From a virus (Duplodnaviria > Caudoviricetes): a DNA stretch of 59,412 nt. Both the position numbers and the translations under genes were made by a program. Position 1 is the stretch's first letter; each line of letters starts with the position of its first letter. The notes beneath the pieces are model-generated. The model was not told the origin of the DNA and searched no databases. It saw only the letters and a program-made list of their open reading frames with translations. Shown in pieces: positions 13,717 through 59,412 of this stretch. The stretch covers positions 1-59,412 of the IMG/VR virus record IMGVR_UViG_3300032225_001111; one strand, written 5' to 3'.

Positions 13717-16700
13717 ATGGCAGACTATGAAGTAAAAGGCAGGATGACGTTAGACTCAACGTCATTTGTTGCGTCTGCTGATCGTGCTTCCGCAGCACTC
13801 AATAATGTAAATAATTACAGTCTCACAAGCGCGATTCGTTTTTCACTCTTGCGTCGTGCCGCATTAGGCGCAGCATTAGCAGTTGGTGGCATTGGTGCGG
13901 CAGGTATCAAAGCCGCATCTGACTATCAGCAAGCGGACATTGCATTTACAACAATGCTTGGTTCAGCAGAAAAATCAACAGCGTTCCTCAAAGACATGCG
14001 CGACTTTGCCGCCGCAACACCATTTGAATTACCACAACTCTTACAAGGCGCTCGCCGCTTGATGGCTATGGGATTTGCCGCAGAAGAAGTAAAGCCGATG
14101 TTGACAGCCGTTGGCGATGCCGCATCAGGTTTAGGCGTTGGCGCAGAAGGCATTGATCGAATTACTCTTGCTCTTGGTCAAATGAAAGCAAAAGGCAAAG
14201 TATCAGGCGAAGAAATGCGTCAGTTGGCTGAGGCGGGTGTGCCAGCATGGCAATACCTTGCACAAGCAACAGGCAAAACAACAGCCGAAATGATGGCATT
14301 GGGTCAAAAAGGTGCAATTCCAGCAGAACAAGCAATTGCTGTTTTGACATACGGCATGGAAAACGGCATTGGAACAGCGCGTGGTTTTGCTGGCATGATG
14401 GATAAACAGTCACACACTATGGCGGGTCTTGCATCTACGATCAAAGACAATTTGCGTAACGCCTTCGTTGACTTCTTCAATGCTAATTTTGAAAAACAAT
14501 TCACAGGAATGTTGGAAAAATTTGCGCCAGTCGCAGGAACAATGCTTCAAAATGTTCTCAAAGTTGTAACAACATTCATTCTAAAATTTGGTCAAATACT
14601 TGGCGGGATCATGACGATCATCAAACCGCTATTTCAAGATTTCCTAATCCCTGCGTTCAAAATTGCAGGTGGGGCGATTTACATTGTAGTTTCGGCGTTT
14701 GCGGCTCTTGGTTCAATGATGATGAAGCATCAAGGAGTAATCAAAGCAATTGTTGACGTAGTCGGTTTGCTTGCCGTTGCATACGGCGCACTCTACGTCG
14801 GTGCAAAACTTCAACTTGGTCTACAAGCATTGCAAGTTGCGTGGGGCAAACTCGTTGTCATGTGGCAAAACAGACAAACGATCGCAACTACAACATTGAC
14901 AGCGGCTCAACGCTTACTCAATTTGACAATGGCTTTCAACCCTATTGGTTTAGTTATTGCCGCAATTGCATTGCTTGTTGGTGGATTTATGCTCTTATGG
15001 AAACATTCCGAAGGCTTCCGCAAAATTATGATTTCTATTGGCAAAGTAGGCATTGATGTATTTGCCTTCATACTAAGAGCGGCTGGCGTTTATGCCGAAG
15101 GTCTTGTGAACATAATTACAGGTCCACTCAAGTTATTCCTAAAATTGCTTTCATTTATTAGCCCTGACGCAAAGAAAGCCTACGACGGACTTTCAGTTAT
15201 GACAAAGGGCGTAGGTAAGTTTTTTGATGATGCCGCAACAAAGGTTGAAGGATTCAAGGGCAAACTTGATTCAATGGGTAAGACAGCGGTTCAAGTAAAA
15301 GACAAAGTAGCGACTAAAAAAACAACACCAAAGGGCAAAGTTCCTACGATCGATTTTGGTGCAGGTAATTCAGCCGCCGCACAAAATAAAGCCGATACCC
15401 TTGCTGGTCAAGTTCAAGACCTCAAAGATGGTTTGAAGGCATACAACGACTTTATCAAAAATGACTTCATAACTGGATTCTTGCAAGATTCAACAAGTGC
15501 GCGAGATGCTGTTATGAAAGGTCTTGACGAAGTAAAGAAAGTATTTGATCTCAAAGCAAAGATGCTTTCAGGTAAAGCCCTTACTGACTTGAATAACGCA
15601 TGGAACAAACTTGATGAAACAGTACGCGCATTTATTCCACAAGCAATGGCAACTGCCGCGGCACTCGAACAAGTCAACAAAGATTTAGATGCGGCAAATA
15701 AAGCATTAGAAAAAGCAATTCAAGATCGAACAGAAGCAGTTGCTAAATTTACAGCGATGCTTCGCAATCCATTTGGTGAGCCTAGCGAAATTCAAAAGGC
15801 ATTAGGTTCGGCATCATCAACTGTTGACTCGATCATTAGCATGTATGACAGTTTGGTTGAAACAATCAATCAGCGTTACTCAGGTCTTGATCAATCAGGT
15901 AAGAACGCGCTTATTTCAGCACTTACTGATCAAACAGCAAGCCTTGTCAAACTTTCAAAAGAACGTGACAACCTTATTCAAACACTTGATGATCAAAAGA
16001 AAAAACTTGAAGACATTTTGAACGCACAAGCGTCTTTCAAGACAAGCGTGACTGGTTCATTGCGTGACTTCGTAACCGCGCTCGCCGATCTTTCAAAGGG
16101 TGATTCGTCAACAACGATCAAGGTGATCAAGACAGCATCAGGGCTTGTAGTCACTCAAATGCAACAGGCAACAAGCGGTGTTGACACGATCACAACCCAA
16201 CTCAAAGATCGACTTTCACAAGTCACAGCATTCGCTAACAACATCAATTCTTTGCTCACACGCGGTCTAAGCAAGGAATACATTGCACAACTTCTTGCCG
16301 CAGGACCCGAAGCCGCCGCATCAACCGCCGCACTTCTCGCGTCTGCTGGCGATGATCAGATTGCTCAAATCAATTCGCTTTACACCCAAGTTGATGCACT
16401 TACATCAACATTCGGTGATCAAATGGCAACCAGTTACTACGATCAAGCGGTCAAAGCACAAGAGGCATTGATTAAGGGAACACAAGATAAATTAGATGCG
16501 GTCAAAGCACAAATGGATTCGATCACAGCATCGGTTACAGCATCACTTCAACCTCTTGCGAGCCTTGGCACAAATCTAGGAAACGATCTTGCACAAGGAT
16601 TAGTTGATTCATTGACTAAGCGTAAGGCTGAATTGATCGCATTGGCAGAATCAATTGCGGCGGCTATTAGTGCGGCAATGGCGGCGGCACTTTCATCTAT

Positions 16701-48017: not shown

Positions 48018-48156
48018 TTTACTAACAGGCATAACTGTTGGCATGTTGTTCTCCTTCTTCAAATTTCCCATTCCTGCACCACCTACGTTTGCTGGCATTG
48101 TTGGCATTGTTGGTATTTGGTTAGGCATGATCATTATGGTTTGGTTTCGTAATTGA
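47998..48156 (+). CDS. XapX/DUF1427-like small membrane protein (not in ORF track)
   Basis: SLLTGITVGMLFSFFKFPIPAPPTFAGIVGIVGIWLG. Confidence 0.75.
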   Translation: MMMVTSSLLTGITVGMLFSFFKFPIPAPPTFAGIVGIVGIWLGMIIMVWFRN

Positions 48157-48461
48157 ATAAGCCCCCGCGTTACCCGCGAGTAACAGGATTCGAACCATGC
48201 GCCGTTACTGATCCCGAATTATGGTTTCCCGAACGTTCTAATCAATACATGAAAATCGCCGCAATTGCTAAACAACTTTGTCAGACATGTCCACTAATGT
48301 ATGAGTGTGCTGATTACGCCATTGGTACTGATGTCGAAGGCATCTGGGGCGGGACAGACGAAAAACAAAGGAAGGCAATTCAAAAAGCGCGAGGAATTGA
48401 ACCATTCAAATTCGTCAAACTTATGGTTGCTTTATTGGAACAAATGAACGCGAAAGCGTAA
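48153..48461 (+). CDS. whiB: WhiB-family transcription factor
   Basis: C...DPELWFP...AK.LC..CP....C...GIWGG. Confidence 0.93.
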   Translation: MNKPPRYPRVTGFEPCAVTDPELWFPERSNQYMKIAAIAKQLCQTCPLMYECADYAIGTDVEGIWGGTDEKQRKAIQKARGIEPFKFVKLMVALLEQMNAKA

Positions 48462-49123: not shown

Positions 49124-50398
49124 ATGGCACAAAGACCTGATCTCAACGAATTAGGCACAAGCGGCTTACGTCGTAGTGGCGGTTTCGTCCATGAGGAATT
49201 CCTTACCCAACTTCGAGGAAAACGAGGACTCCTTGTTTATCGCGAAATGGCAGATAACGATCCTGTTATCGGTTCAATCCTTTATGCGATCGAAAAGGTA
49301 ATCCTTCGTCTTGAATGGCGCGTTGATCCTGCTGATGATTCAGCAGATGCAAAAGCACAAGCAGAATTCATCGATGAATGTCTAGAGGACATGTCGGATT
49401 CATGGGATCAAACTCTTGCATCAATTCTTTCTATGCTCGTCTACGGATTTTCTTTCCATGAAATCGTCTACAAGATTCGCGGCGGTGAGTCAAAAGACCC
49501 AAAGCGTGATTCAAAGTTTTCAGATGGCAAGGTTGGTTGGCGTAAGTTAGCAATCCGATCACAAGAAACATTGAACAATTGGATGATGGACGTCGATGGT
49601 GGGCTACAAGGTTTCCGTCAAATGGATCCAACAGGCGGTGGATTCCGCGAGATTCCTATTGATAAAGGTTTGTTATTCCGCACTAACGTCAACAAATCAA
49701 ACCCCGAAGGTCGATCATTACTTCGTAACTCATTTAGACCTTGGTATTACAAGCGACGCATTGAAGAAATCGAAGCGATCGGTATTGAACGTGATCTAGC
49801 AGGTTTGCCAGTTGCCAAAGTGCCGCCTGAGTATTTATCAAGTGGTGCAACAGCCGCACAGCAATCTGTTCTTGCTAACATCACTCAGATCGTTCAAAAC
49901 ATCAAGCGAAATGAGCAAGAGGGTGTCATTTTCCCATTGATGTATGACGAAAACGGCAAAGAAATGTTCTCGCTTGAACTCCTATCATCGGGCGGTTCAC
50001 GTCAATTCGACACAGACAAAGTGATCAGTCGTTATGATCAACGCATTGCAATGTCTGTTCTTTCAGATTTTATTCTTCTTGGTCATGAGTCAGTTGGTTC
50101 GTTTGCATTAGGTTCACAGAAGATGGATTTGTGGACTATGTCAATTGATGCGATCGCAAAGTCAATTGCCGAAGTCATGAACCAGTATGCAATTCCACGC
50201 TTGATCGCGCTCAATGGAATGAACGCAGAACTCACACCTTATTTGAGTTATGGTCAAGTTTCACACGTTGATCTAGGCGAACTAGCCGATTATGTTCAGA
50301 AACTCACAGCGTCAGGTGCATTGATGCCTGATGCAAACTTGGAAGCATACTTGCGTGAACAAGCAAGCCTTCCACCTGCGGAGAATACGGTTGCCTGA
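49124..50398 (+). CDS. Portal protein (DUF935-like)
   Basis: YGFS..EIVY, NPEGRSLLR, ERDLAGLP, GSFALG; first gene of the head operon. Confidence 0.9.
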   Translation: MAQRPDLNELGTSGLRRSGGFVHEEFLTQLRGKRGLLVYREMADNDPVIGSILYAIEKVILRLEWRVDPADDSADAKAQAEFIDECLEDMSDSWDQTLASILSMLVYGFSFHEIVYKIRGGESKDPKRDSKFSDGKVGWRKLAIRSQETLNNWMMDVDGGLQGFRQMDPTGGGFREIPIDKGLLFRTNVNKSNPEGRSLLRNSFRPWYYKRRIEEIEAIGIERDLAGLPVAKVPPEYLSSGATAAQQSVLANITQIVQNIKRNEQEGVIFPLMYDENGKEMFSLELLSSGGSRQFDTDKVISRYDQRIAMSVLSDFILLGHESVGSFALGSQKMDLWTMSIDAIAKSIAEVMNQYAIPRLIALNGMNAELTPYLSYGQVSHVDLGELADYVQKLTASGALMPDANLEAYLREQASLPPAENTVA

Positions 50399-52668
50399 TG
50401 TTCGTTGTGCGCAAAGCGGCGAACGATCCTCAACCACCTCTTGATCCCAACGAGGAACAAGTAAGCAAGATTGTTCAACAGGGCATGACCGATGCCGAAA
50501 AAGCGGCAATGTCTGTTCCCGTAAAAGACGCGATCGCATCTCGTAACTATGAAGCGATCGTAGATGCCTTCCCTTGGCAAGATGTAAAAAACACACTCGA
50601 CCTTACAAAAGAGCCATTTGCTGATGCAACAAAGAAAAAGATCGGCACAGGATTCCCGACTATTCAATTCAAAGGTCGATTCGATTACACAGACCCACGC
50701 GCAACACAATGGGCAATTGATCAAAGCGCACGTCTTGTAACTGCGGTAACAGATGAGATGCGCCAGCAGATTCGTGACGTGATCGGACAAGCATTTACAC
50801 AGAACAAGACAGTTGTTGACACAGCAAAACAACTTCGAACATTTATTGGTTTGAACGCACGTCAGCAACGCGCTTTAGAAAACTTTATTGAACAGAACAA
50901 AGATAAACCTAATTTTGAAAAGTTAGTTGCCGACTATCGAGCAAAGGCGATCAAGTATCGAGCAACGATGATCGCACGAACTGAAATCATTACCGCAGAA
51001 TCAAATGGTCGTCAATTAGGGTGGCAACAAAGCATCGATGGCGGTTGGGCGCACCCTCAATCGATGAAGCGTTGGTCGGCGGCATTAGGCGAGCGCACTT
51101 GTGAAATTTGTGCGGCAATGAATGGCAAGTCAGTTCGTTGGGACTTACCTTTCCCCAATGGTGTCTTTGATGCGCCAGCCCATGTTATGTGTCGATGCTC
51201 AACAGTATTGCTAGAACCTGATTCATCACTTGCTCAATCATTCATGACAGATGCGCTCGCAGTTGATCCACCACCACGCGAATTCTTACCTGAGAAAGCA
51301 ATAGTCGCGATCGCAGGATTACAGAGTGCAAATCAAGCAGTTGCTCTTGCTCATTCAAGCCCTTCACGCGTGAGTTCGTTTCAATACGATTCAGGCGACA
51401 TTGCCAATCTTCATGTCGAGGCTGAGGCAGTCACATTCAATGGAGTTCCGTCAACCGCCCTCAAAATGAAACTCACACCGCAAGCAACAAAAGATTTAGA
51501 AAAGTCAATTGCTCGCGACAACGGGAAGAATTGGAAAACAAATAAAGGCATTGCCGTTCTTGATTATCAATCACCTGACGGCAAACTAGCGTTTGCAAAC
51601 ATTGATCAAGCAGGAAACCTAATAGATCACCCTGTATGGTGGTCAAGCAAAGACGAAGGACCAGTAATTGGCAAGTTTGGTGCGATCAAAGGCAATGCTA
51701 CTTACACTCGCTACTTACCCAACGGAACCGCTATTCGATTCATACGATCACCCGAAGGGGGCGATTCATTAGATGGTTTTGTCCGTGTAGTTATCCCACA
51801 AAAGCCTGATCAGAAAATTATTGATGAAACACTTGCAACGTTTCTAAAAGCACCACGCCTAGCCTCGGAAAAAGACGTAGAAGTTCTCAAAGTAAATCAA
51901 TTGATCAATGTTTTCAAGCCTAATGATAAAGACTTGATGGCGATGGGTCATGAAAATAGAAAAGATTATGTTGAAAAGATAGTAGGTAAGTATTGGGGAT
52001 TCAAACTTGCTGACGTTACGCAAGAACTTGATCAAGATGGCGCATTGCGTTTTCTATTACCCGTTGAAACAGCCGCAAAAATTATGAAAGCAACTGGGGT
52101 TATCCGCATTGATCATAGTTTGGGCAATTTGCTTTATGACTCGAATGGCAAATTTGATACAAAAAAAGTTGTTGCTATGTTTTCAAAGCCTACTCCCGCG
52201 CTTCAATCTACCTATACTCGATGGACACGGGGCATTGACATCGAGGGTTTGAGTTCAAAAACAGACGTTCGAGCAGGCGGCGGTGAGTATGTATTTATGC
52301 GCCCTATTTACTCACAAGATAAAACTCTCAGAACAGGATCAATCAATTTCCACGCGCCCGAATTATTCAGACGCTTGGATTGGTATGCGTGGGCAAACGA
52401 TAGTTATGGTGTTCGTAGTCCTGTGGCAAGATCGCTATGGAAAGGCGAAACATCATTTGATAACCCTAACTGGTTTGGTGAATTGATGGCTGGCAGTCAA
52501 GCCTTTCATCAGCCTGAGATTATGTTTCGAGGCACAGTTCCATTCAAACATGCAATCGAAATGATGGTCGACAAAGAAGCGAAAGTCCAAATAATTGCCG
52601 CATTGCAGAAAGCGGGAGTGGAGTCAATCAATGGGGATTCTCTTGATTTATTCTTCACTACCAACTAA
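50398..52668 (+). CDS. MuF-like head morphogenesis protein with about 480-aa C-terminal extension
   Basis: RATMIARTE, K.W......RTCEIC..MNG and PAH.MCRC MuF motifs in the first ~270 aa. Confidence 0.85.
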   Translation: MFVVRKAANDPQPPLDPNEEQVSKIVQQGMTDAEKAAMSVPVKDAIASRNYEAIVDAFPWQDVKNTLDLTKEPFADATKKKIGTGFPTIQFKGRFDYTDPRATQWAIDQSARLVTAVTDEMRQQIRDVIGQAFTQNKTVVDTAKQLRTFIGLNARQQRALENFIEQNKDKPNFEKLVADYRAKAIKYRATMIARTEIITAESNGRQLGWQQSIDGGWAHPQSMKRWSAALGERTCEICAAMNGKSVRWDLPFPNGVFDAPAHVMCRCSTVLLEPDSSLAQSFMTDALAVDPPPREFLPEKAIVAIAGLQSANQAVALAHSSPSRVSSFQYDSGDIANLHVEAEAVTFNGVPSTALKMKLTPQATKDLEKSIARDNGKNWKTNKGIAVLDYQSPDGKLAFANIDQAGNLIDHPVWWSSKDEGPVIGKFGAIKGNATYTRYLPNGTAIRFIRSPEGGDSLDGFVRVVIPQKPDQKIIDETLATFLKAPRLASEKDVEVLKVNQLINVFKPNDKDLMAMGHENRKDYVEKIVGKYWGFKLADVTQELDQDGALRFLLPVETAAKIMKATGVIRIDHSLGNLLYDSNGKFDTKKVVAMFSKPTPALQSTYTRWTRGIDIEGLSSKTDVRAGGGEYVFMRPIYSQDKTLRTGSINFHAPELFRRLDWYAWANDSYGVRSPVARSLWKGETSFDNPNWFGELMAGSQAFHQPEIMFRGTVPFKHAIEMMVDKEAKVQIIAALQKAGVESINGDSLDLFFTTN

Positions 52669-53077: not shown

Positions 53078-55348
53078 ATGCCTTGGACGATCGAAACTAA
53101 AGCACCTGACTGTAAAGGGTTTGCTGTTGTCAACGCAAACGGCAAAACAGTTGGTTGCCATACATCGCGGAAAGATGCGCTCGCGCACCAACGCGCCCTT
53201 TATGTCAATGTAAAAGATGTCACTCAAAAAGACGACCCAACAGTAAGTGACGTTCATGTTGACACGATCATGAACCCAGCACTTATCGCATACAAAAGAC
53301 CCAAGAAGCCAAAATTTGCAAAAAGCGTAGATTCATTGATCATGCAACATGACAAGTTGCACACAATGACTGATCAACCCAACGATGCTCAACTTTATGT
53401 TCACCACGCTCTTATGGATGCGATCAATAAAGCAGGACAAGACGTAAGTTGCTCATGCGGGGTATGGTCAGAACCTCTACTCCTTAGTAGCGTTTCAACA
53501 ACATTCGAAGCACTTGCTAAATCAGATAACCCATCACTAAGTCCTGTTTCACAAATCATTCAAAGTGGAATTGATCAAGGCTATAAGTTTGCAGATGTTC
53601 TACACATGCTCGATGTCGGCGGCTTTATGATGGTTGTTCGACCAAAAATCGTTGATGAACCAACACCGATGCAAGAGAGTTCCGAGAAATCAGTTCTTAC
53701 TCGTATCAAAAACAAAGTAAGTGAAAAATTGAACGTTGAAAAAGAAGTGCCTACTTCATTTACGCCACCACAGGCGGTTCAAGATGAAGCAAAACGTGCT
53801 TTGCAATGGATCAAAGAAGGACACGCAGGATCAAACTTCACCGATGTTGGGCGCGCTCGCGCTTCACAACTTGCAAATGGTGAACCCGTATCAAGAGACA
53901 CGCTCGCTCGTATGAAATCTTTTCTTGCTCGACATGAAGTCGATTCACAAGGTCAGGGTTATCACATAGGAGAGGCTGGGTTTCCGTCACCCGGTCGGGT
54001 TGCATACGCTGCGTGGGGTGGGTCTGCGGCGAAGACTTGGGTCGATAAACTATTTCGACAGTTCGATTTAGCGAAATCCTATGGTCATGTAGAAACTGTC
54101 TATAAGGCAAATGAACAACGATTCACACTCGGTCCTTGGTACATACCAAACCAACAAGATGCGCATGGTGAATGGACTGATCCACAAGAGTTACAGCAAG
54201 GTCTATGGGATTACGTCAAGTCAGGCGATCGCAACATTCGACTTCAACATAACAAGAATGTTGTTGCAGGACAATGGGTTGAAACAATGACATGGCCTTA
54301 TGACGTGACTGTTCCTATGACAAAGGCAGACGGCACATCTAATCCCATTACATACCCCGCTGGAACTGTTTTCATGGGAGTAGTTTGGGAACCTTGGGCG
54401 TGGGATTTAGTCAAGGCTGGAAAACTTACAGGTTATTCAATTGGTGGTAAGTCAGAACGTGTAATGGTTGACTTCCCTGATGCAACAACAGCACAAATGG
54501 CAAAACACTTACAAGGAAAACATGATCAACGCACTCACGCGCATGGTCACGGCGGTGGCAGTCCTAGTAATGAGCCTCGCGCTGGAATGGGCGACATAAA
54601 AATTACTGATGAGATGGCGGCAGAAATGCAAGGTGGAAGTGCCGCGCCATTCTTGATCAAAGACGCGCAAGGCAATTGGGCTTTCACGCCCGAACGTCAA
54701 GCGATGCACGATTCAATAGTAAAGAAATCAGTTGATGGAATTCCTGCATCAACAAACCCAACCTATGTTGTTATGGGCGGTGGTCCTGCGGCTGGAAAAT
54801 CAACAATTCTTGAAAGCGGGGCAGTAAAACTTCCCCCACATACAGTTGAAGTAAATTCTGATCACGTCAAAACTCAATTGCCTGAATGGCAGACAGCAGG
54901 AGTCAATCGCGCATCAGTTACGCATGCCGAATCTTCTTACGTTGCAAAGCGCACTCAAAGCGCGGCGTTCGAACGCAAGCAAAACATTGTTCTCGATGGA
55001 ACAGGTGACACGTCACCAAAGTCAATGAGTGGAAAGATCGATACGGCTCACGCGGCTGGATACAAAGTCGATGCTCACTATGTAACATTGCCAACGAATT
55101 TAGCAATTGAAAATGCGGCGGCTAGAGCGGCAAAGACAGGTCGACACGTTCCAGATGAAGTGATCAGAACAACTCATGCTGGCGTATCAAACACATTCCC
55201 GTCTGTTGCGACTAAGTTTGATTCCGTCAAGTTATACGACACCTCAGTAAAAGGAACTGCTCGCTTGATCGCAGAAGGCGGTAGCGGCACACTCAACATT
55301 GTAGACAAAGTTGCCTATGACGGATTTTTAGCGAAAGGTAAAGAATGA
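53078..55348 (+). CDS. Multidomain protein: XkdF-like prohead protease plus C-terminal zeta-toxin-like P-loop kinase
   Basis: RFTLGPWYIP..QDAHGE, LQH, W..VK.G.LTGYSIGG (XkdF); MGGGPAAGKST, VNSDHVK, VLDGT, R...TGRHVP (zeta-like). Confidence 0.85.
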   Translation: MPWTIETKAPDCKGFAVVNANGKTVGCHTSRKDALAHQRALYVNVKDVTQKDDPTVSDVHVDTIMNPALIAYKRPKKPKFAKSVDSLIMQHDKLHTMTDQPNDAQLYVHHALMDAINKAGQDVSCSCGVWSEPLLLSSVSTTFEALAKSDNPSLSPVSQIIQSGIDQGYKFADVLHMLDVGGFMMVVRPKIVDEPTPMQESSEKSVLTRIKNKVSEKLNVEKEVPTSFTPPQAVQDEAKRALQWIKEGHAGSNFTDVGRARASQLANGEPVSRDTLARMKSFLARHEVDSQGQGYHIGEAGFPSPGRVAYAAWGGSAAKTWVDKLFRQFDLAKSYGHVETVYKANEQRFTLGPWYIPNQQDAHGEWTDPQELQQGLWDYVKSGDRNIRLQHNKNVVAGQWVETMTWPYDVTVPMTKADGTSNPITYPAGTVFMGVVWEPWAWDLVKAGKLTGYSIGGKSERVMVDFPDATTAQMAKHLQGKHDQRTHAHGHGGGSPSNEPRAGMGDIKITDEMAAEMQGGSAAPFLIKDAQGNWAFTPERQAMHDSIVKKSVDGIPASTNPTYVVMGGGPAAGKSTILESGAVKLPPHTVEVNSDHVKTQLPEWQTAGVNRASVTHAESSYVAKRTQSAAFERKQNIVLDGTGDTSPKSMSGKIDTAHAAGYKVDAHYVTLPTNLAIENAAARAAKTGRHVPDEVIRTTHAGVSNTFPSVATKFDSVKLYDTSVKGTARLIAEGGSGTLNIVDKVAYDGFLAKGKE

Positions 55349-55557
55349 CAACCGATACTCCACGAATTGAACGCATGTATCTTGAAATCCTTTTGGGTAT
55401 TGATCAGAAAGACTCGTTACTCAAACCCCTAACAAGTGCCGAAGTTGCACAATGGGGTCGTCTTGATAAGCAAGTCAAAGAGATTCAAGCAATGGGTGGC
55501 GAATTTGAAATCCCAAATGAAATCCCTGACTCAAAACCAGTATTTGAATCTAAATGA
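55345..55557 (+). CDS. 70-aa protein coupled to the kinase domain (candidate antitoxin)
   Basis: ATGA overlap. Confidence 0.6.
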   Translation: MTTDTPRIERMYLEILLGIDQKDSLLKPLTSAEVAQWGRLDKQVKEIQAMGGEFEIPNEIPDSKPVFESK

Positions 55558-55928
55558 TCATTTCCATCTTCAAACACCTTGCTGGAAAACATAATCAGCA
55601 TACTCATGCTCATGCAGGTCATGGAACGACAGGTGGCGATGCTGTTCACAGAAACTTGGCTATGCACATTGATCCAATAGGGGCAAAGATCGACGCGGTC
55701 AACTCAAATCCTACGATCGCAGGAGATTTAGCACAAGCAAAAGTCACATTGCATGCCGCATCGATCGCACCAACGGCTATGGCGAGCGCAAACGCATTAG
55801 GCAACACGCGCACAGCATTACAGACCGCCGCACGGAAAGTTACTGGCACAAACACCCCGTTAGCCATTACACTTGCTGACATAGGCAAACAAATACAATT
55901 GGTTGCAGACGCACTTCAAAGACCGTGA
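55554..55928 (+). CDS. Ala-rich helical protein with N-terminal KHLxGKHxQxTHAH tag
   Basis: Tag shared with an internal segment of 53078..55348. Confidence 0.7.
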   Translation: MIISIFKHLAGKHNQHTHAHAGHGTTGGDAVHRNLAMHIDPIGAKIDAVNSNPTIAGDLAQAKVTLHAASIAPTAMASANALGNTRTALQTAARKVTGTNTPLAITLADIGKQIQLVADALQRP

Positions 55929-55937
55929 GGACGAACA

Positions 55938-56447
55938 ATGAGTGATGAGAAATGGGTTTATGTGGAAAGCAACGTAAGCAAAGAAATGGTTGAAGTTGCA
56001 CCACCAGCGATCGCTGACGTATTGCGTAAGTTGCTTGCCAACAATGTGATCGTTTATTTCCGCGCACACGGATACCATTGGAATGTCAAAGGAATTCACT
56101 TCCCTGCATACCATAAGTTCTTCCAAAAGATTTACGAAGACCTTTATGAAGCGATCGATCCAACAAGCGAATGGTTGCGCAAAGAGGGTTATGACGCACC
56201 TTACACAATTCAAGATTTTATGGCTCTCACAGACATTCAAGAGCCGATCAAGCAAGTTAGTTTGACGGGCATGCTTCAATCACTTCTCGAAGGCATACAG
56301 AACTTAGAGGCAACAACAGAAGAAGCGTTCAAGATTGCAACCGATGAGGATGAACAAGGCTTGATCAATTTCTTAGGCGGTCGTTTAGACATGCTTGAAA
56401 AGTGGGAATGGCAATTGAACACCTCGGTAAATGAAGGTTGGATGTAA
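55938..56447 (+). CDS. dps: Dps-family ferritin-like protein
   Basis: HGYHWNVKG..F...H..F...Y...D...E signature. Confidence 0.9.
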   Translation: MSDEKWVYVESNVSKEMVEVAPPAIADVLRKLLANNVIVYFRAHGYHWNVKGIHFPAYHKFFQKIYEDLYEAIDPTSEWLRKEGYDAPYTIQDFMALTDIQEPIKQVSLTGMLQSLLEGIQNLEATTEEAFKIATDEDEQGLINFLGGRLDMLEKWEWQLNTSVNEGWM

Positions 56448-56731
56448 TGAGCATAGTAATCAACGACGGCAACAGCACACCTGTAACTGTTCACAATGTA
56501 GTTTTAGCAAAAGGCATGGCAGTCGGTTCTATGGTTTCATGGCAAGCAAGCGGCGGTGGTGCAACGGGCAAAATTGAACGCATCATGCGCGATGGCACTT
56601 TATCTATCCCTAATTCATCATTCAACGTAACAGCACAAAAAGATGATCCCGCAGTTCTTATTCGAGTTTATCGAGATGGCAAGCCTACCGATACTTTGGT
56701 TGGTCATAAAATGTCAACACTAAAGGGGTAA
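56447..56731 (+). CDS. Tudor-like (DUF2945-like) protein with MSIVINDGN leader
   Basis: VGSMVSW...GG...GKI...DDPA...VGHK.STL; TAATG overlap. Confidence 0.75.
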   Translation: MSIVINDGNSTPVTVHNVVLAKGMAVGSMVSWQASGGGATGKIERIMRDGTLSIPNSSFNVTAQKDDPAVLIRVYRDGKPTDTLVGHKMSTLKG

Positions 56732-57168
56732 TGATGAGCATAGTGATCAATGATGGCAATACTTCACCAGTATCGGTTCATCGTGAGGCAAGTAAAGCGG
56801 CATGCCCAACTGCAACTAAAGACATTGCCGTAAATCTTGCGCATCGTCAGAAGGCGATCAAGACAGCACACTATGGTCCTTTGAACCCCGCCGAACCTAA
56901 CGCAGACTTTTGGCAAGCAAAGGCTGACATGTGGGAAATTCCTATTTCAGAGGCAAAAACATCTCGTTGCGGTAACTGCGCGGCGTTTATTCAAACAAAG
57001 CAAATGCTTGACTGCATTGATGCAGGACTAACTGCTGGCGATTCTAATGCCCAAAATGCTTGGGATACGATCGGCGCTGGTAATCTTGGCTACTGCGAAG
57101 CATTTGACTTCAAATGCGCAAGTAAAAGAACTTGCGACGCATGGATAGCGGGGGGTCCTGTAAAGTGA
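56731..57168 (+). CDS. Cys-rich HiPIP-like protein with MSIVINDGN leader
   Basis: RCGNCAAF...GYCEAF...RTCDAW. Confidence 0.7.
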   Translation: MMSIVINDGNTSPVSVHREASKAACPTATKDIAVNLAHRQKAIKTAHYGPLNPAEPNADFWQAKADMWEIPISEAKTSRCGNCAAFIQTKQMLDCIDAGLTAGDSNAQNAWDTIGAGNLGYCEAFDFKCASKRTCDAWIAGGPVK

Positions 57169-57353
57169 TCAAGTATCGTAAAAACCAAACTATTTTTGTA
57201 AAGCCTACAAGCGGGGCAGTTCGTCCTGCTCGTATCACATCAGTCACAAGTCAAACATCATTGACTGTTTCATACAACAAGGGTGCAACAGCAACAGTTA
57301 CAGTCGCGGCTAACTCAGGAAAGACACACACACCTAAATTAGCATCTGAGTAA
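57165..57353 (+). CDS. Small basic beta protein, paralog of 57356..57541
   Basis: GTGA overlap start; I.VK.T.G..R.A....V..Q.SL.V. Confidence 0.65.
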   Translation: MIKYRKNQTIFVKPTSGAVRPARITSVTSQTSLTVSYNKGATATVTVAANSGKTHTPKLASE

Positions 57354-57355
57354 TC

Positions 57356-57541
57356 ATGGCTAAAAAAATTCATACTGGAACTGCTATTCACGTCAAAACG
57401 ACGGCTGGCAGAATTCGTCATGCGATCGTAAAAACAGTCACAACTCAAGATTCACTATCAGTTCAAATTGATAAAGGAACTGCCTTTGCCGTAACTCGCG
57501 CCGCATCAACAACAACTCGCGGAACTCAATTCAATCAGTAG
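57356..57541 (+). CDS. Small basic beta protein, paralog of 57165..57353
   Basis: Shared motif as above. Confidence 0.65.
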   Translation: MAKKIHTGTAIHVKTTAGRIRHAIVKTVTTQDSLSVQIDKGTAFAVTRAASTTTRGTQFNQ

Positions 57542-57684: not shown

Positions 57685-58578
57685 ATGGCGAAAGCACCAA
57701 AGATGGTTCGCCTCGCAATTGATGAAACTAGCGGTGTTGATCATCCAGCGCATCTAACCGAAGGTTGGATGGTAATGAAATCAACAACAACAGAAGAAAT
57801 TGATGCGGTATTAGATTCCTTATCAACCGAATCAAACACTCAATCAACAAAGGAGGACTCAGTGTCCGATGAAAGCACAGTTGTAACTGAGGACGCAGAA
57901 GTTGTGGAAGCCCCAGCGGCAGAAGCAACACCAACTGAGTCTCCAGCAGAAGACGTAGATGCAAAAATCGCTGAACTCGAAGCCGAACTTGAGAAGGCAA
58001 AGGCTTCAAAGCCTGATCCAATGGCTCAAATGGTTGGAGAGTCAGACGCAGATTATGCAAAGCGCATGAAAGAAATGAAAATGAGCAAGAGTGCAACAAA
58101 TGATGATGACTCATCAGACATTGCAACACTAAAGAAGTCTGCATCTGCACCAATTGTGAAAGCAATGGAATCGCTTGAAAAGGCGGCGGCAGATGCAATT
58201 GCAACTCTAAAGAAGGAACGCGATGAGCGCGCCGATGCAGAAGCAGTTGCTAAGGCTAAAGCATGGTCAAATCTTCCGCTTGACGCGGAAAAGGTTGGTC
58301 CTGCACTTCGTCAGTTGTCACAAATCAACGAAGAACTTGCAAAGTCAATTGAAGGCATCTTGTCATCAGTAAACGAGCAAGCAAAGACATCAAATCTATT
58401 TGCAGAAATTGGTAAGTCAGTCGACGCAGGAACAGACGCTTATTCACGCATGTCAGCACTCGCTAAAGCGGCTGTTGAATCAGGCGTTGCTAAGTCAATG
58501 GAACAGGCAATGGCAGACGTAGCGATCGCAAATGCAGATCTTTACTCACAGTATCTATCCGAGAAGGGTGCTAAATAA
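57685..58578 (+). CDS. Capsid scaffolding protein with N-terminal protease-like strand
   Basis: Acidic/Ala-rich coiled coil before the capsid genes; N-terminal IDETSGVDHPAH. Confidence 0.8.
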   Translation: MAKAPKMVRLAIDETSGVDHPAHLTEGWMVMKSTTTEEIDAVLDSLSTESNTQSTKEDSVSDESTVVTEDAEVVEAPAAEATPTESPAEDVDAKIAELEAELEKAKASKPDPMAQMVGESDADYAKRMKEMKMSKSATNDDDSSDIATLKKSASAPIVKAMESLEKAAADAIATLKKERDERADAEAVAKAKAWSNLPLDAEKVGPALRQLSQINEELAKSIEGILSSVNEQAKTSNLFAEIGKSVDAGTDAYSRMSALAKAAVESGVAKSMEQAMADVAIANADLYSQYLSEKGAK

Positions 58579-58581
58579 AAA

Positions 58582-58980
58582 ATGGCATACGAAATTAGTA
58601 ATTATGCAGTAAAGGTAACCCTCGTCGCAGGTGCTGACCTTTCTGCTTTGCAATACACATTTGTAAAACTCAATTCAAGCGGTCAGGCTGTTGCAGTTTC
58701 TGCGGCTACCGACGTAGCAATTGGTGTTCTACAAAACAAGCCAACATCTGGTCAGGAAGCAGAAGTCTTGATCGTCGGCGGAACAAAGATTGTTGCCTCA
58801 GCGGCTGCAACACTTGGAACCGCACTAAACATCGGAACAACATCAGCAGGTAAGGCTGTCGCTCTTGCAGTAACAGACACCACTAAGTATGTTTTTGGCG
58901 TTTATCTAACAGCACCAGGCGCCGATGGAGACATCGTAACTGCTGCAATCAACTGCGCTACACCAACAAGAGCGAACTAA
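58582..58980 (+). CDS. Capsid decoration/cement protein
   Basis: AGADLS..QY.FVKL...IGVLQN.P...GGTK; between scaffold and capsid genes. Confidence 0.8.
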   Translation: MAYEISNYAVKVTLVAGADLSALQYTFVKLNSSGQAVAVSAATDVAIGVLQNKPTSGQEAEVLIVGGTKIVASAAATLGTALNIGTTSAGKAVALAVTDTTKYVFGVYLTAPGADGDIVTAAINCATPTRAN

Positions 58981-58994
58981 GGAGAGCAAAGTAA

Positions 58995-59412
58995 ATGCCA
59001 CAGCCAAGCATAAATGACGTCCACATTGACGCCATTCTTACCAACATTTCTGTTGCATACCTACAAAAGCAAGATAACTTCATTGCTGACAAGGTATTCC
59101 CAGTAATCCCAGTTGATAAGAAATCAAACAAGTATTTCGTCTACACAAAGAACGACTGGTTCCGCGATGAGGCACAACGCCGCGCCGATGCAACCGAGTC
59201 TGCTGGTAGCGGATTCTCACTCACAACAGCAACTTACAACACAGATGTGTTTGCATTCCACAAGGATGTAGGCGATCAGACAGTTGCTAACTCAGATGCA
59301 CCATTGAACCCACTTCGCGAAGCGGCAGAATTCGTTACACAGCGCCTTCTTCTTCGTCGTGAACTACAGTTCGTAACTGACTTCTTCACAACAGGCGTAT
59401 GGGGATCAGACG
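58995..59412 (+). CDS. Major capsid protein, N-terminal part (continues across the join to 683)
   Basis: AAGGAG RBS; MPQPSINDVHIDAILTNISVAY...FIADKVFP. Confidence 0.9.
   Translation, partial: MPQPSINDVHIDAILTNISVAYLQKQDNFIADKVFPVIPVDKKSNKYFVYTKNDWFRDEAQRRADATESAGSGFSLTTATYNTDVFAFHKDVGDQTVANSDAPLNPLREAAEFVTQRLLLRRELQFVTDFFTTGVWGSD
59290..59412. repeat. Terminal direct repeat copy 2
   Basis: Identical to 1..123. Confidence 0.97.

Follow-up and report, generated by a model that had tools for sequence, protein, structure and literature searches.

Proteins injected by a phage set the first minutes of infection, in host takeover and in counter-defence. To our knowledge, the proteins carried in a capsid cannot be predicted from sequence outside T4, P1, P22, N4 and the giant phages. 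In T4, the protease gp21 cuts after L/I-x-E, and a 10-residue capsid-targeting sequence (CTS) of the internal protein IPIII holds both targeting and processing residues (PMC9026906). The capsid maturation cut of HK97 (family S78) falls at K103/S104 and is a precedent for Lys at the P1 position (PMC10275583). A zeta kinase fused to the head protein MuF is also mentioned in the group PMC5512222, PMC3482391 and PMC5576092. Here we describe the head module of a tailed virus (Duplodnaviria; Caudoviricetes), IMG/VR record IMGVR_UViG_3300032225_001111. All 59,412 bases of it, hereafter the window, were analysed; they form a complete virus record with a terminal repeat of 123 bases. Between the portal and putative scaffold genes of this virus, unrelated proteins share two kinds of short peptides, named tag 1 and tag 2 below, which adjoin a junction made of a hydrophobic residue, any residue and Lys (hydrophobic-x-Lys).

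We lean slightly towards reading this arrangement as a load-and-cut system resembling that of the T4 CTS, with Lys at P1 and with the Dps protein of the region excepted. An earlier sequence-only reading had suggested Lys-cut tagging of head cargo. The comparative data on headers, on the junction and on confinement to head modules speak for that idea, whereas Dps turned out to be untagged and the tags to be of two kinds. Tag 1, which lies upstream of the Lys, is a leader; tag 2, downstream of it, is a header and would be retained by the mature protein.

Tag 2 follows the pattern KHLxGKH[DN]QxxH. It reads KHLQGKHDQRTHAH at residue 476 (nt 54503) of the protein encoded at 53078-55348, and KHLAGKHNQHTHAH at residue 7 of the 124-amino-acid (aa) protein starting at 55554. 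The likeness between them, already noticed in the sequence-only reading, amounts to 11 of 14 residues, and the codons comprise seven identical, four synonymous and three non-synonymous ones; Asn replaces Asp in the second copy. Both copies fit the form [K]-H-[LF]-x-G-x-H-[DN]-Q-x-x-H with a Gly-rich stretch, with at least seven residues ahead and a location in the head module. A degenerate DNA pattern for K-H-[LF]-x-G-x-H-D-Q-x-x-H was found in at least 120 viral stretches and at least 187 reading frames, reaching 11 copies within 14 kb and five within a single frame. A profile built from 119 copies, the alignment of which is headed by the window's first copy, gave 1,373 matches at E<=0.001 among 1.84 billion cluster representatives, including 278 at E<=1e-10, a level that needs several copies. 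The maximum was 10 headers per protein, in one of 3,023 residues, and successive headers were a median of 249 residues apart in the best 150 of the 1,373 matches.

The domains found behind single headers were ADPrib_exo_Tox (6), DUF3626 (6), SprT-like (2) and Zeta_toxin (1), and most had no family; the 49 open reading frames (ORFs) scanned, taken from the 187 listed frames, were complete, 120-520 aa long and had one header within their first 100 residues. Ten multi-header proteins contained ADPrib_exo_Tox in three cases and ART-PolyVal, GNAT and SprT-like domains in one case each, and five were without known domain. These multi-header proteins are phage-type polyvalent proteins in the sense of Iyer et al. 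(PMC5512222). Header copies were confined to head modules: in eight relatives of at least 97% completeness, all 59 had the orientation of the genes and lay between the portal and the gene of a 132-aa head protein, and a reversed-pattern control gave 0. A portal homologue occurred in 54 fetched loci, the best listed being 66-87% identical to that of the window, and because these loci share it, much of the locus sample is one broad lineage. Headers were never N-terminal. All 222 copies with a mapped upstream stop codon were at least 13 residues away from it, and the shortest leader counted from a start codon had nine residues among the copies checked, versus seven in the window.

Header types are exchanged between orthologues. 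At the equivalent position, orthologous kinases and 124-aa proteins bear KHLxGKHDQ, KYNPNHDxxGRF, KANPYRDxxxGRF, RHLxGxHDQ or KHGTHDQKTH. The window kinase, fused to a protease, has ..QMAK then HLQGKHDQRTHAH. In the nearest relative, L002, and in L137, the kinase has a gene of its own and a leader of 23 residues, which ends in ..EPVEK before YNPNHDARGRF, and in L003 and L142 ..EPVDK is followed by ANPYRDGSTGRF; more distant kinases show ..NEER then HLQGKHDQ, or ..GKIR then HLPGQHDQ. The 124-aa protein has MIISIFK then HLAGKHNQ in the window, ..SVVQK then YNPNHG.. in L002 and ..GVVK then HGTHDQKTH in L052; structural comparison with the Atlas suggests weak neighbours only for this protein. Two further header-tagged genes of L002 have ADP-ribosyltransferase matches. 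The header motif was not described in the literature searched by motif strings and by phage-capsid topic, where supplementary files might hold alignments showing it. Text searches of PMC5512222, PMC3482391 and PMC5576092 likewise brought up nothing on header peptides, on a Lys junction or on leaders. The header is very common in phages and apparently undescribed.

Domain boundaries had been proposed to fall repeatedly at x-x-K. All listed triplets are present and conserved at some junctions, but as a general rule they occur at chance level: the 12 head-module proteins, 3,149 residues in all, contain 96 instances of [VFLMIA]-x-K, or roughly one every 33 residues. Because of this general frequency, x-x-K weighs only at the junctions conserved across families: those that precede tag 2 and the protease domain, the one that closes tag 1, and the one in the N-terminal part of the scaffold. 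The residue ahead of the header was K in 185 of 228 copies, followed by R (14), F (12), E (6), L (4), A (3), G (2), N (1) and Y (1), and V, L, I or F stood two places further back in 142 of the 228. Where loci had been picked for one K-junction copy, every further copy there also had K. Among the 424 headers in the best 150 of the 1,373 profile matches, K preceded 343 and F preceded 50. This Phe forms a second junction class, and Glu preceded by a hydrophobic residue makes up a small further class (..LLE-HL, ..IKE-HL).

The junction was found in both fused and split genes. The best 120 of 557 protease homologues comprised 53 that stop about 19 residues past GYSIGG, 36 that run into a header, six that run into Tudor, 18 with other extensions and seven without the anchor motif. 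All 36 post-protease headers (17 of the HDQ type, 19 of the NP..GRF type) have K ahead and L, V, M or I two before this K. The six protease-Tudor fusions show ..TVVK then ASS, or ..IVAK then ESS, and M-E-K then A-A-CP joins the protease and Cys-rich domains in polyproteins. Protein P0344 is organised as protease-Tudor-header-module, and P0393 as Tudor-protease-..MEK, AACP-Cys-rich. The protease ORF of L002 ends 19 residues after GYSIGG, and its kinase is encoded separately. Gene borders of the window and L002 coincide with these polyprotein joints, and the junction is the same for cargo fused to the XkdF-type protease or encoded apart. The site before the protease domain reads ..TVYK then ANEQRF in the window, SVYK-ADEKRF in L002, and SFAK-ADERRF and QFAK-QDERRF in two polyproteins. 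MuF opens with MFVVRK then A, and the form M-x-[VLF]-V-x-K-A occurs in four homologues. A strongly conserved 32-residue segment at the N-terminus of the scaffold (57685-57783) ends in W-M-V-M-K32 then S (..ETSGVDHPAHLTEGWMVMK). In 10 scaffold homologues, including that of phage Laroye, the N-termini end in [LVM]-V-x-K then S or A, and the acidic region after the Lys is variable.

Tag 1 (MSIVINDGN..PV.VH) opens the Tudor-like (56447) and the Cys-rich (56734) proteins. The sequence-only reading was right on this shared start: 13 of the first 16 residues are common, with synonymous codon differences at six of the 13. Because the copies differ at synonymous sites while the residues match, selection acts on the peptide, and DNA homology is not what is conserved. 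Across phages, tag 1 was indeed present on Tudor and Cys-rich relatives, but on the closest ones only; it was seen solely via protein homology, and a strict DNA pattern gave 0 matches in viral contigs. In the Tudor set (50 homologues, 36 aligned, plus L002) it was restricted to the six closest homologues, 77-94% identical. The remaining ones carry a helical extension of about 60 residues or short leaders, nearly all with K-A or A-K right before the domain. Two of the best 120 of 714 Cys-rich homologues have tag 1. A leader of at most 45 residues was present in 82 of these 120, of at least eight types including MNKHAHIYQITKA, MSVNLNEFSVVVKA, MEILLHRRVVKA and MSLTPAFVTLLKA, and hydrophobic-x-K-A stands at the end of 69 of the 82, immediately ahead of CPxAT; longer Cys-rich forms carry ..TAAVETSEG in its place. 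In the AlphaFold2 (AF2) model of the Tudor protein, pLDDT is below 50 at residues 1-4 and 9-21, and 10-residue blocks from residue 21 average 78-91, suggesting that the tag 1 region is disordered. Tag 1 is a lineage-restricted, by this model disordered, leader, one of at least eight leader types ahead of the same domains. The idea that it mimics an N-terminal strand, either that of the 132-aa head protein or that of the capsid protein, was dropped, the likeness being a few residues seen by eye. Short N-terminal propeptides on unrelated proteins encoded with head genes, the hallmark of the T4 CTS, are thus represented by leaders of 7-25 residues on the kinase, 124-aa, Tudor and Cys-rich families. 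By analogy, such a propeptide would end in a protease cleavage motif, the conserved hydrophobic-x-K, with Lys at P1 as in HK97.

Protease families were scored in 50 records. Peptidase_S78_2 was present in 20 of the 34 K-junction records and in 0 of the 16 others, and Peptidase_S78, which we take to belong to the same Pfam clan, in five further K records and in all three R records, giving 28 of 37 K or R records with one or the other. Neither family was seen in the 13 records whose junction residue is F, E, L, Y or G. S77 (PF03420) was found in 0 of 50 records including the window, with control genomes silent too; the only ClpP matches came from one L-type record and one K-type record, and S49 matched 0 of 22. 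None of S78, S78_2, S77, ClpP and S49 was found in the Phe- or Glu-junction records L148, L149, L152, L157, L158, L163, L164, L168 and L170. No printed account of the cleavage specificity of S78_2 proteases turned up, and PMC12749128 on the D3 capsid yielded no cleavage residue.

The kinase domain matched PF06414 at E=4.7e-26, and its P-loop, GGGPAAGKS, is invariant in eight orthologues. Profile matches in the PDB were AvrRxo1-ORF1, Pnkp1 and zeta toxin. A gene for a 70-aa protein directly follows the kinase in L003, L137, L002 and L142. The modelled complex of the two proteins had an ipSAE of 0.92, versus 0.01 for the best control, and its interface spans the P-loop region. The score mark was attained by 58 of 80 solved complexes and by 2 of 110 mismatched pairs, with runs sharing at least 93% of contacts and a partner pLDDT of at least 83; this calibration is only rough for the kinase model, which was run with small alignments of our own. 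Among solved structures the 70-aa protein has no relative by sequence, and it shows no homology to epsilon. It is predicted to be an inhibitor (immunity or antitoxin) of the kinase, without known family, and the modelled pair fits a toxic effector kept silent in the producing cell. As in polyvalent effector systems, enzyme domains of effector type stand in one chain with, or next to, head proteins. The window has the protease and Zeta_toxin in one chain and a MuF with a 470-aa extension, and relatives carry ART, Tudor, kinase and Cys-rich fusions.

Profile searches bore out the gene identities first proposed (Portal_Mu, Phage_Mu_F, Peptidase_S78_2 plus Zeta_toxin in one 756-aa protein, Ferritin-like, Hva1_TUDOR). 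That of the scaffold is consistent with its position and with phrog_13547, a family that is functionally unannotated. The label 'Fe-S' for the Cys-rich protein was not upheld: there was no Pfam match at E<=0.01, the PDB profile search gave no HiPIP at E<=1 (chance-level matches) and the AF2 model, of mean pLDDT 45.5, was too poor for a fold search. The name HiPIP, given to Cys-rich relatives in GenBank, was likewise not borne out by Pfam, the PDB profile search or AF2. The Cys-rich module, with 714 homologues, is fused to Tudor or ferritin in some of them and also occurs in an unrelated lake actinophage of 129 kb, where it lies within the head module (L181, 8719-9453). Dps had been listed as tagged cargo and has to be withdrawn from that list: it has no tag and no conserved junction, its VSK not being conserved in L002, and so it is linked to the system only by position and by rare fusion.

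If these elements act together, a cargo chain would be laid out as a leader or upstream head protein, a hydrophobic-x-Lys junction, an optional header with Gly-rich linker, and the cargo domain. Cargo would enter the procapsid fused to a head protein, as the kinase on the protease polyprotein and the domain of about 470 aa on MuF, or via a short leader, as with tag 1 on the Tudor and Cys-rich proteins and MIISIF on the 124-aa protein. The XkdF-type (Peptidase_S78_2) prohead protease would then cut after Lys, freeing leaders and modules, and the header (tag 2) would remain at the new N-terminus of the kinase and of the 124-aa protein. The kinase at least, a zeta-type toxin presumably held inactive by the 70-aa protein, would be delivered with the DNA. 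The header may be read on the P' side by a shared protease fold, hold the cargo in the capsid, or act in ejection.

Several points weigh against this load-and-cut reading. By chance alone hydrophobic-x-K is already frequent, and the x-x-K rule by itself does not exceed that level. Headerless standalone forms exist, such as a 151-aa protein of L002, and Dps, as said, is untagged. Laroye, a cultured relative with the same module order, has neither an HDQ nor an NP..GRF header in the 23 kb searched. The K-A beside the first Cys of the Cys-rich protein could belong to the domain. Neither S78 nor S78_2 was seen in nine of the 34 K-junction records, two of which are complete, and no protease family was found for the F, E and L junctions (S77, ClpP and S49 were tried, the S77 controls being silent). 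The K-protease association and the count of 36 out of 36 are not independent events, since K-junction records are largely one phage lineage. The header does not seem to be simply a cleavage motif, because it lies on the P' side and is common to lineages with different junction residues. Lastly, the score of the kinase-partner model may be high through likeness to solved zeta-type complexes, since the kinase has solved relatives.

The Tudor, Cys-rich, Dps and small beta proteins may instead serve in head assembly, as internal structural components or as late accessory proteins of the cytoplasm, for example in the handling of DNA or metal, their leaders being processed like scaffold propeptides or aiding assembly, with only the kinase-type enzymes as true effectors. 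We regard this as unlikely, but it accounts for several observations. These four modules are conserved and often fused to one another or to the protease (Tudor/Cys-rich, ferritin/Cys-rich, protease/Tudor), whereas the enzyme cargo is hypervariable; they are without the widespread header; the scaffold shows the same kind of junction; and a Cys-rich gene sits in the head module of the 129-kb phage. However, their junction is common with that of the header-tagged enzymes, in polyproteins even within the same chain. Furthermore, no structural role is known for any of them, and Dps dodecamers and metal-cluster proteins have no known part in capsid assembly.

Another explanation, to which we give a little less credit still, is that the peptides are module boundaries without any role in proteolysis or targeting, i.e. 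flexible Gly-rich linkers or pre-toxin-like motifs that permit cassette swapping and of which standalone genes keep joint remnants. Polymorphic toxins do use conserved boundary motifs. Headers mark the exact points of gene fusion and fission, close relatives have reshuffled header types and cargo, and the median spacing of 249 residues between successive headers is one domain length. Yet the synonymous differences between copies show that the peptide was kept and not DNA homology, and in a mere remnant one would not expect Lys to be invariant, with a hydrophobic residue at the second position ahead of it, throughout 36 of 36 cases and three header types, nor a leader of at least seven residues to be kept every time. 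Tag-less leaders ending in the same junction on Tudor and Cys-rich proteins would also be left unexplained. It is highly improbable that the header is an intrinsic motif of the cargo, such as a His/Asp metal site or an N-terminal cap for folding or activity, unrelated to capsids. The three invariant His and the Asp of the HDQ type might suggest so, but the header precedes unrelated folds and is restricted to head modules, orthologues swap it for NP..GRF types with one His or none, and the Asn in the window's second copy takes the place of that Asp.

The features of the head module are collected in Table 1. Its gene order is portal, MuF, 122-aa protein, 756-aa polyprotein, 70-aa protein, 124-aa protein, Dps/ferritin, Tudor, Cys-rich protein, two small beta proteins, putative scaffold, 132-aa head protein and capsid protein (E type).

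Table 1. Features of the window from the portal gene to the end of the record
Feature	Position	Strand	Evidence
Portal, Portal_Mu type; upstream border of the cargo region	49124..50398	+	PF06074 E=2.2e-43, phrog_113
MuF-like minor head protein, 756 aa	50398..52668	+	PF04233 at residues 124-269
Protease polyprotein, 756 aa	53078..55348	+	Peptidase_S78_2 (PF14550) + Zeta_toxin (PF06414)
Junction Q-M-A-K, header copy 1 (HLQGKHDQRTHAH) and Gly-rich linker, between protease and kinase	54494..54544	+	
70-aa protein, predicted kinase inhibitor (immunity/antitoxin); overlaps the kinase stop codon	55345..55557	+	Synteny, complex model
124-aa helical protein; leader MIISIF, junction K7, header copy 2 HLAGKHNQHTHAH (nt 55575-55613)	55554..55928	+	
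Dps/ferritin-like protein, untagged	55938..56447	+	PF00210 E=2.3e-17
Tudor (Hva1) protein; residues 1-22 are the tag 1 leader MSIVINDGNSTPVTVHNVVLAK (nt 56447-56512)	56447..56731	+	PF11160 E=5e-8
Cys-rich protein, seven invariant Cys; residues 1-21 are the tag 1 leader MSIVINDGNTSPVSVHREASK (nt 56734-56796), then A-A-CPTAT	56734..57168	+	
Two paralogous small beta-rich proteins: 62 aa from GTG 57165, 61 aa from 57356	57165..57541	+	
Putative scaffold, 297 aa, acidic	57685..58578	+	Position and phrog_13547 (function-less family)
132-aa head protein (phrog_673), then the beginning of the major capsid protein, which crosses the record end; downstream border	58582..59412	+	

Nearly all genes of the window are on the + strand, and its G+C content is about 45%. 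Its portal is 57-59% identical to those of Arthrobacter siphoviruses of about 60 kb, e.g. Laroye, and a gene for a WhiB-like transcription factor lies at 48153-48461. From these two features we infer an actinobacterial host, despite the G+C content. A megablast of the head region against phage isolates gave no matches, and neither did tblastn of the 35-residue header region, the latter probably owing to the low-complexity filter. In Laroye (L180), the gene at 14203-15324, annotated 'aldolase class I', ends in an XkdF-type protease domain 66% identical to that of the window. Two H-x-T-type motifs seen by eye in its N-terminal half hint at a 2H phosphoesterase, and the product name looks wrong.

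The window polyprotein consists of an N-terminal region with an SDVHVDTIM..KRPKKPK motif, phrog_2859 at residues 211-326, the XkdF-type serine protease at 339-461, the junction and header, and the zeta-type kinase at 555-721. The motif, P-T-V-S-D-V-H-V-D-T-I-M plus the Lys/Pro-rich KRPKKPK, covers 53225-53330 of the window (residues ~50-84). In a 40%-identical lineage it follows immediately on the protease domain and often forms the C-terminus (..SVHVDTIMKPSKRKKKNG), and it also terminates some polyproteins; it is a movable element, perhaps the protease's own capsid-binding tail. The C-terminal extension of MuF (about 470 aa, 51268-52668) is missing from the 306-aa MuF of L002. It had no Pfam or PHROG match, no header ahead and only weak leads in the Atlas, without usable family. 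The GTG start of the 62-aa beta protein overlaps the stop codon of the Cys-rich gene, and the 62- and 61-aa paralogues are kept in relatives at 71-93% identity.

The interval from the portal to the 132-aa head gene measures 9.9 kb with two headers in the window, and 11 to 22 kb with 1 to 15 headers in relatives. The portal-scaffold interval is a cassette region, of which the window is a minimal case. While the interval spans 9.9-22 kb, with up to 15 headers, genomes stay at 59-62 kb (G002, G007, G027 and the window), and the cargo region grows at the expense of other genome content. If the load-and-cut reading is true, the growth of this interval from 10 to 22 kb would be explained by cassette addition, the grammar of leader, junction and header would allow the cargo of uncultured phages to be listed by computer, and a Lys-specific counterpart of the T4 CTS would become available for packaging foreign proteins in siphovirus-type capsids. 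The window offers a small, tractable example, having a pair of headers, a pair of leaders and a single toxin-type kinase next to which its likely inhibitor is encoded. A wider proposal, which we put forward only tentatively and hold to be rather doubtful, is a general address-and-processing code of tailed phages. Headers of the HDQ and NP..GRF types and a protease-specific junction would direct any domain placed behind a short hydrophobic leader, P1, header and Gly linker into the procapsid, where it would be cut free and later injected; the reader (prohead protease fold, portal or exit channel) would be conserved across lineages, and P1 would co-vary with the protease family. Such a code would provide a portable rule for capsid loading and would make the injected arsenal readable from sequence.

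Compared with known systems, the window is closest to the internal proteins IPI-III and Alt of T4, their CTS and gp21: a short propeptide is common to unrelated head-internal proteins, the site has the form hydrophobic-x-P1, and ADP-ribosyltransferase cargo occurs in relatives. In contrast to T4, however, P1 would be Lys and not Glu, the protease is of the XkdF/S78_2 and not of the gp21/S77 family, a header (absent from T4) lies on the other side of the junction, and cargo would also travel by fusion to the protease and to MuF. Since S77 matched 0 of 50 records, with a silent control, and the protease is PF14550, the window system is to be considered analogous to T4 rather than a member of its kind. 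Likeness to the polyvalent, MuF-fused and portal-fused effectors (PMC5512222, PMC3482391, PMC5576092) lies in enzyme domains (zeta-like kinase, ART, SprT, ART-PolyVal) with or beside head proteins, which are predicted to be packaged and injected. Unlike those effectors, a large share of the cargo here is encoded by small individual genes.

For HK97, we know of no cargo tags. Its protease belongs to a related serine protease family and has Lys at P1, as the present one would, and its substrate is the scaffold domain of the capsid protein (PMC10275583). The zeta-epsilon and AvrRxo1-ORF1/ORF2 pairs also combine a kinase of the Zeta_toxin fold with a small adjacent protein, here modelled over the P-loop. 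In the window, unlike these pairs, the partner lacks a sequence relative in solved structures, its gene follows the kinase, and the kinase is part of a head polyprotein. VENN of CdiA, DPxGL of Rhs and the loading peptides of encapsulins are, as the headers and leaders may be, short delimiting or addressing peptides, with no sequence likeness to them and with different machineries: VENN and DPxGL delimit exchangeable cargo, and encapsulin peptides address a shell of the HK97 fold.

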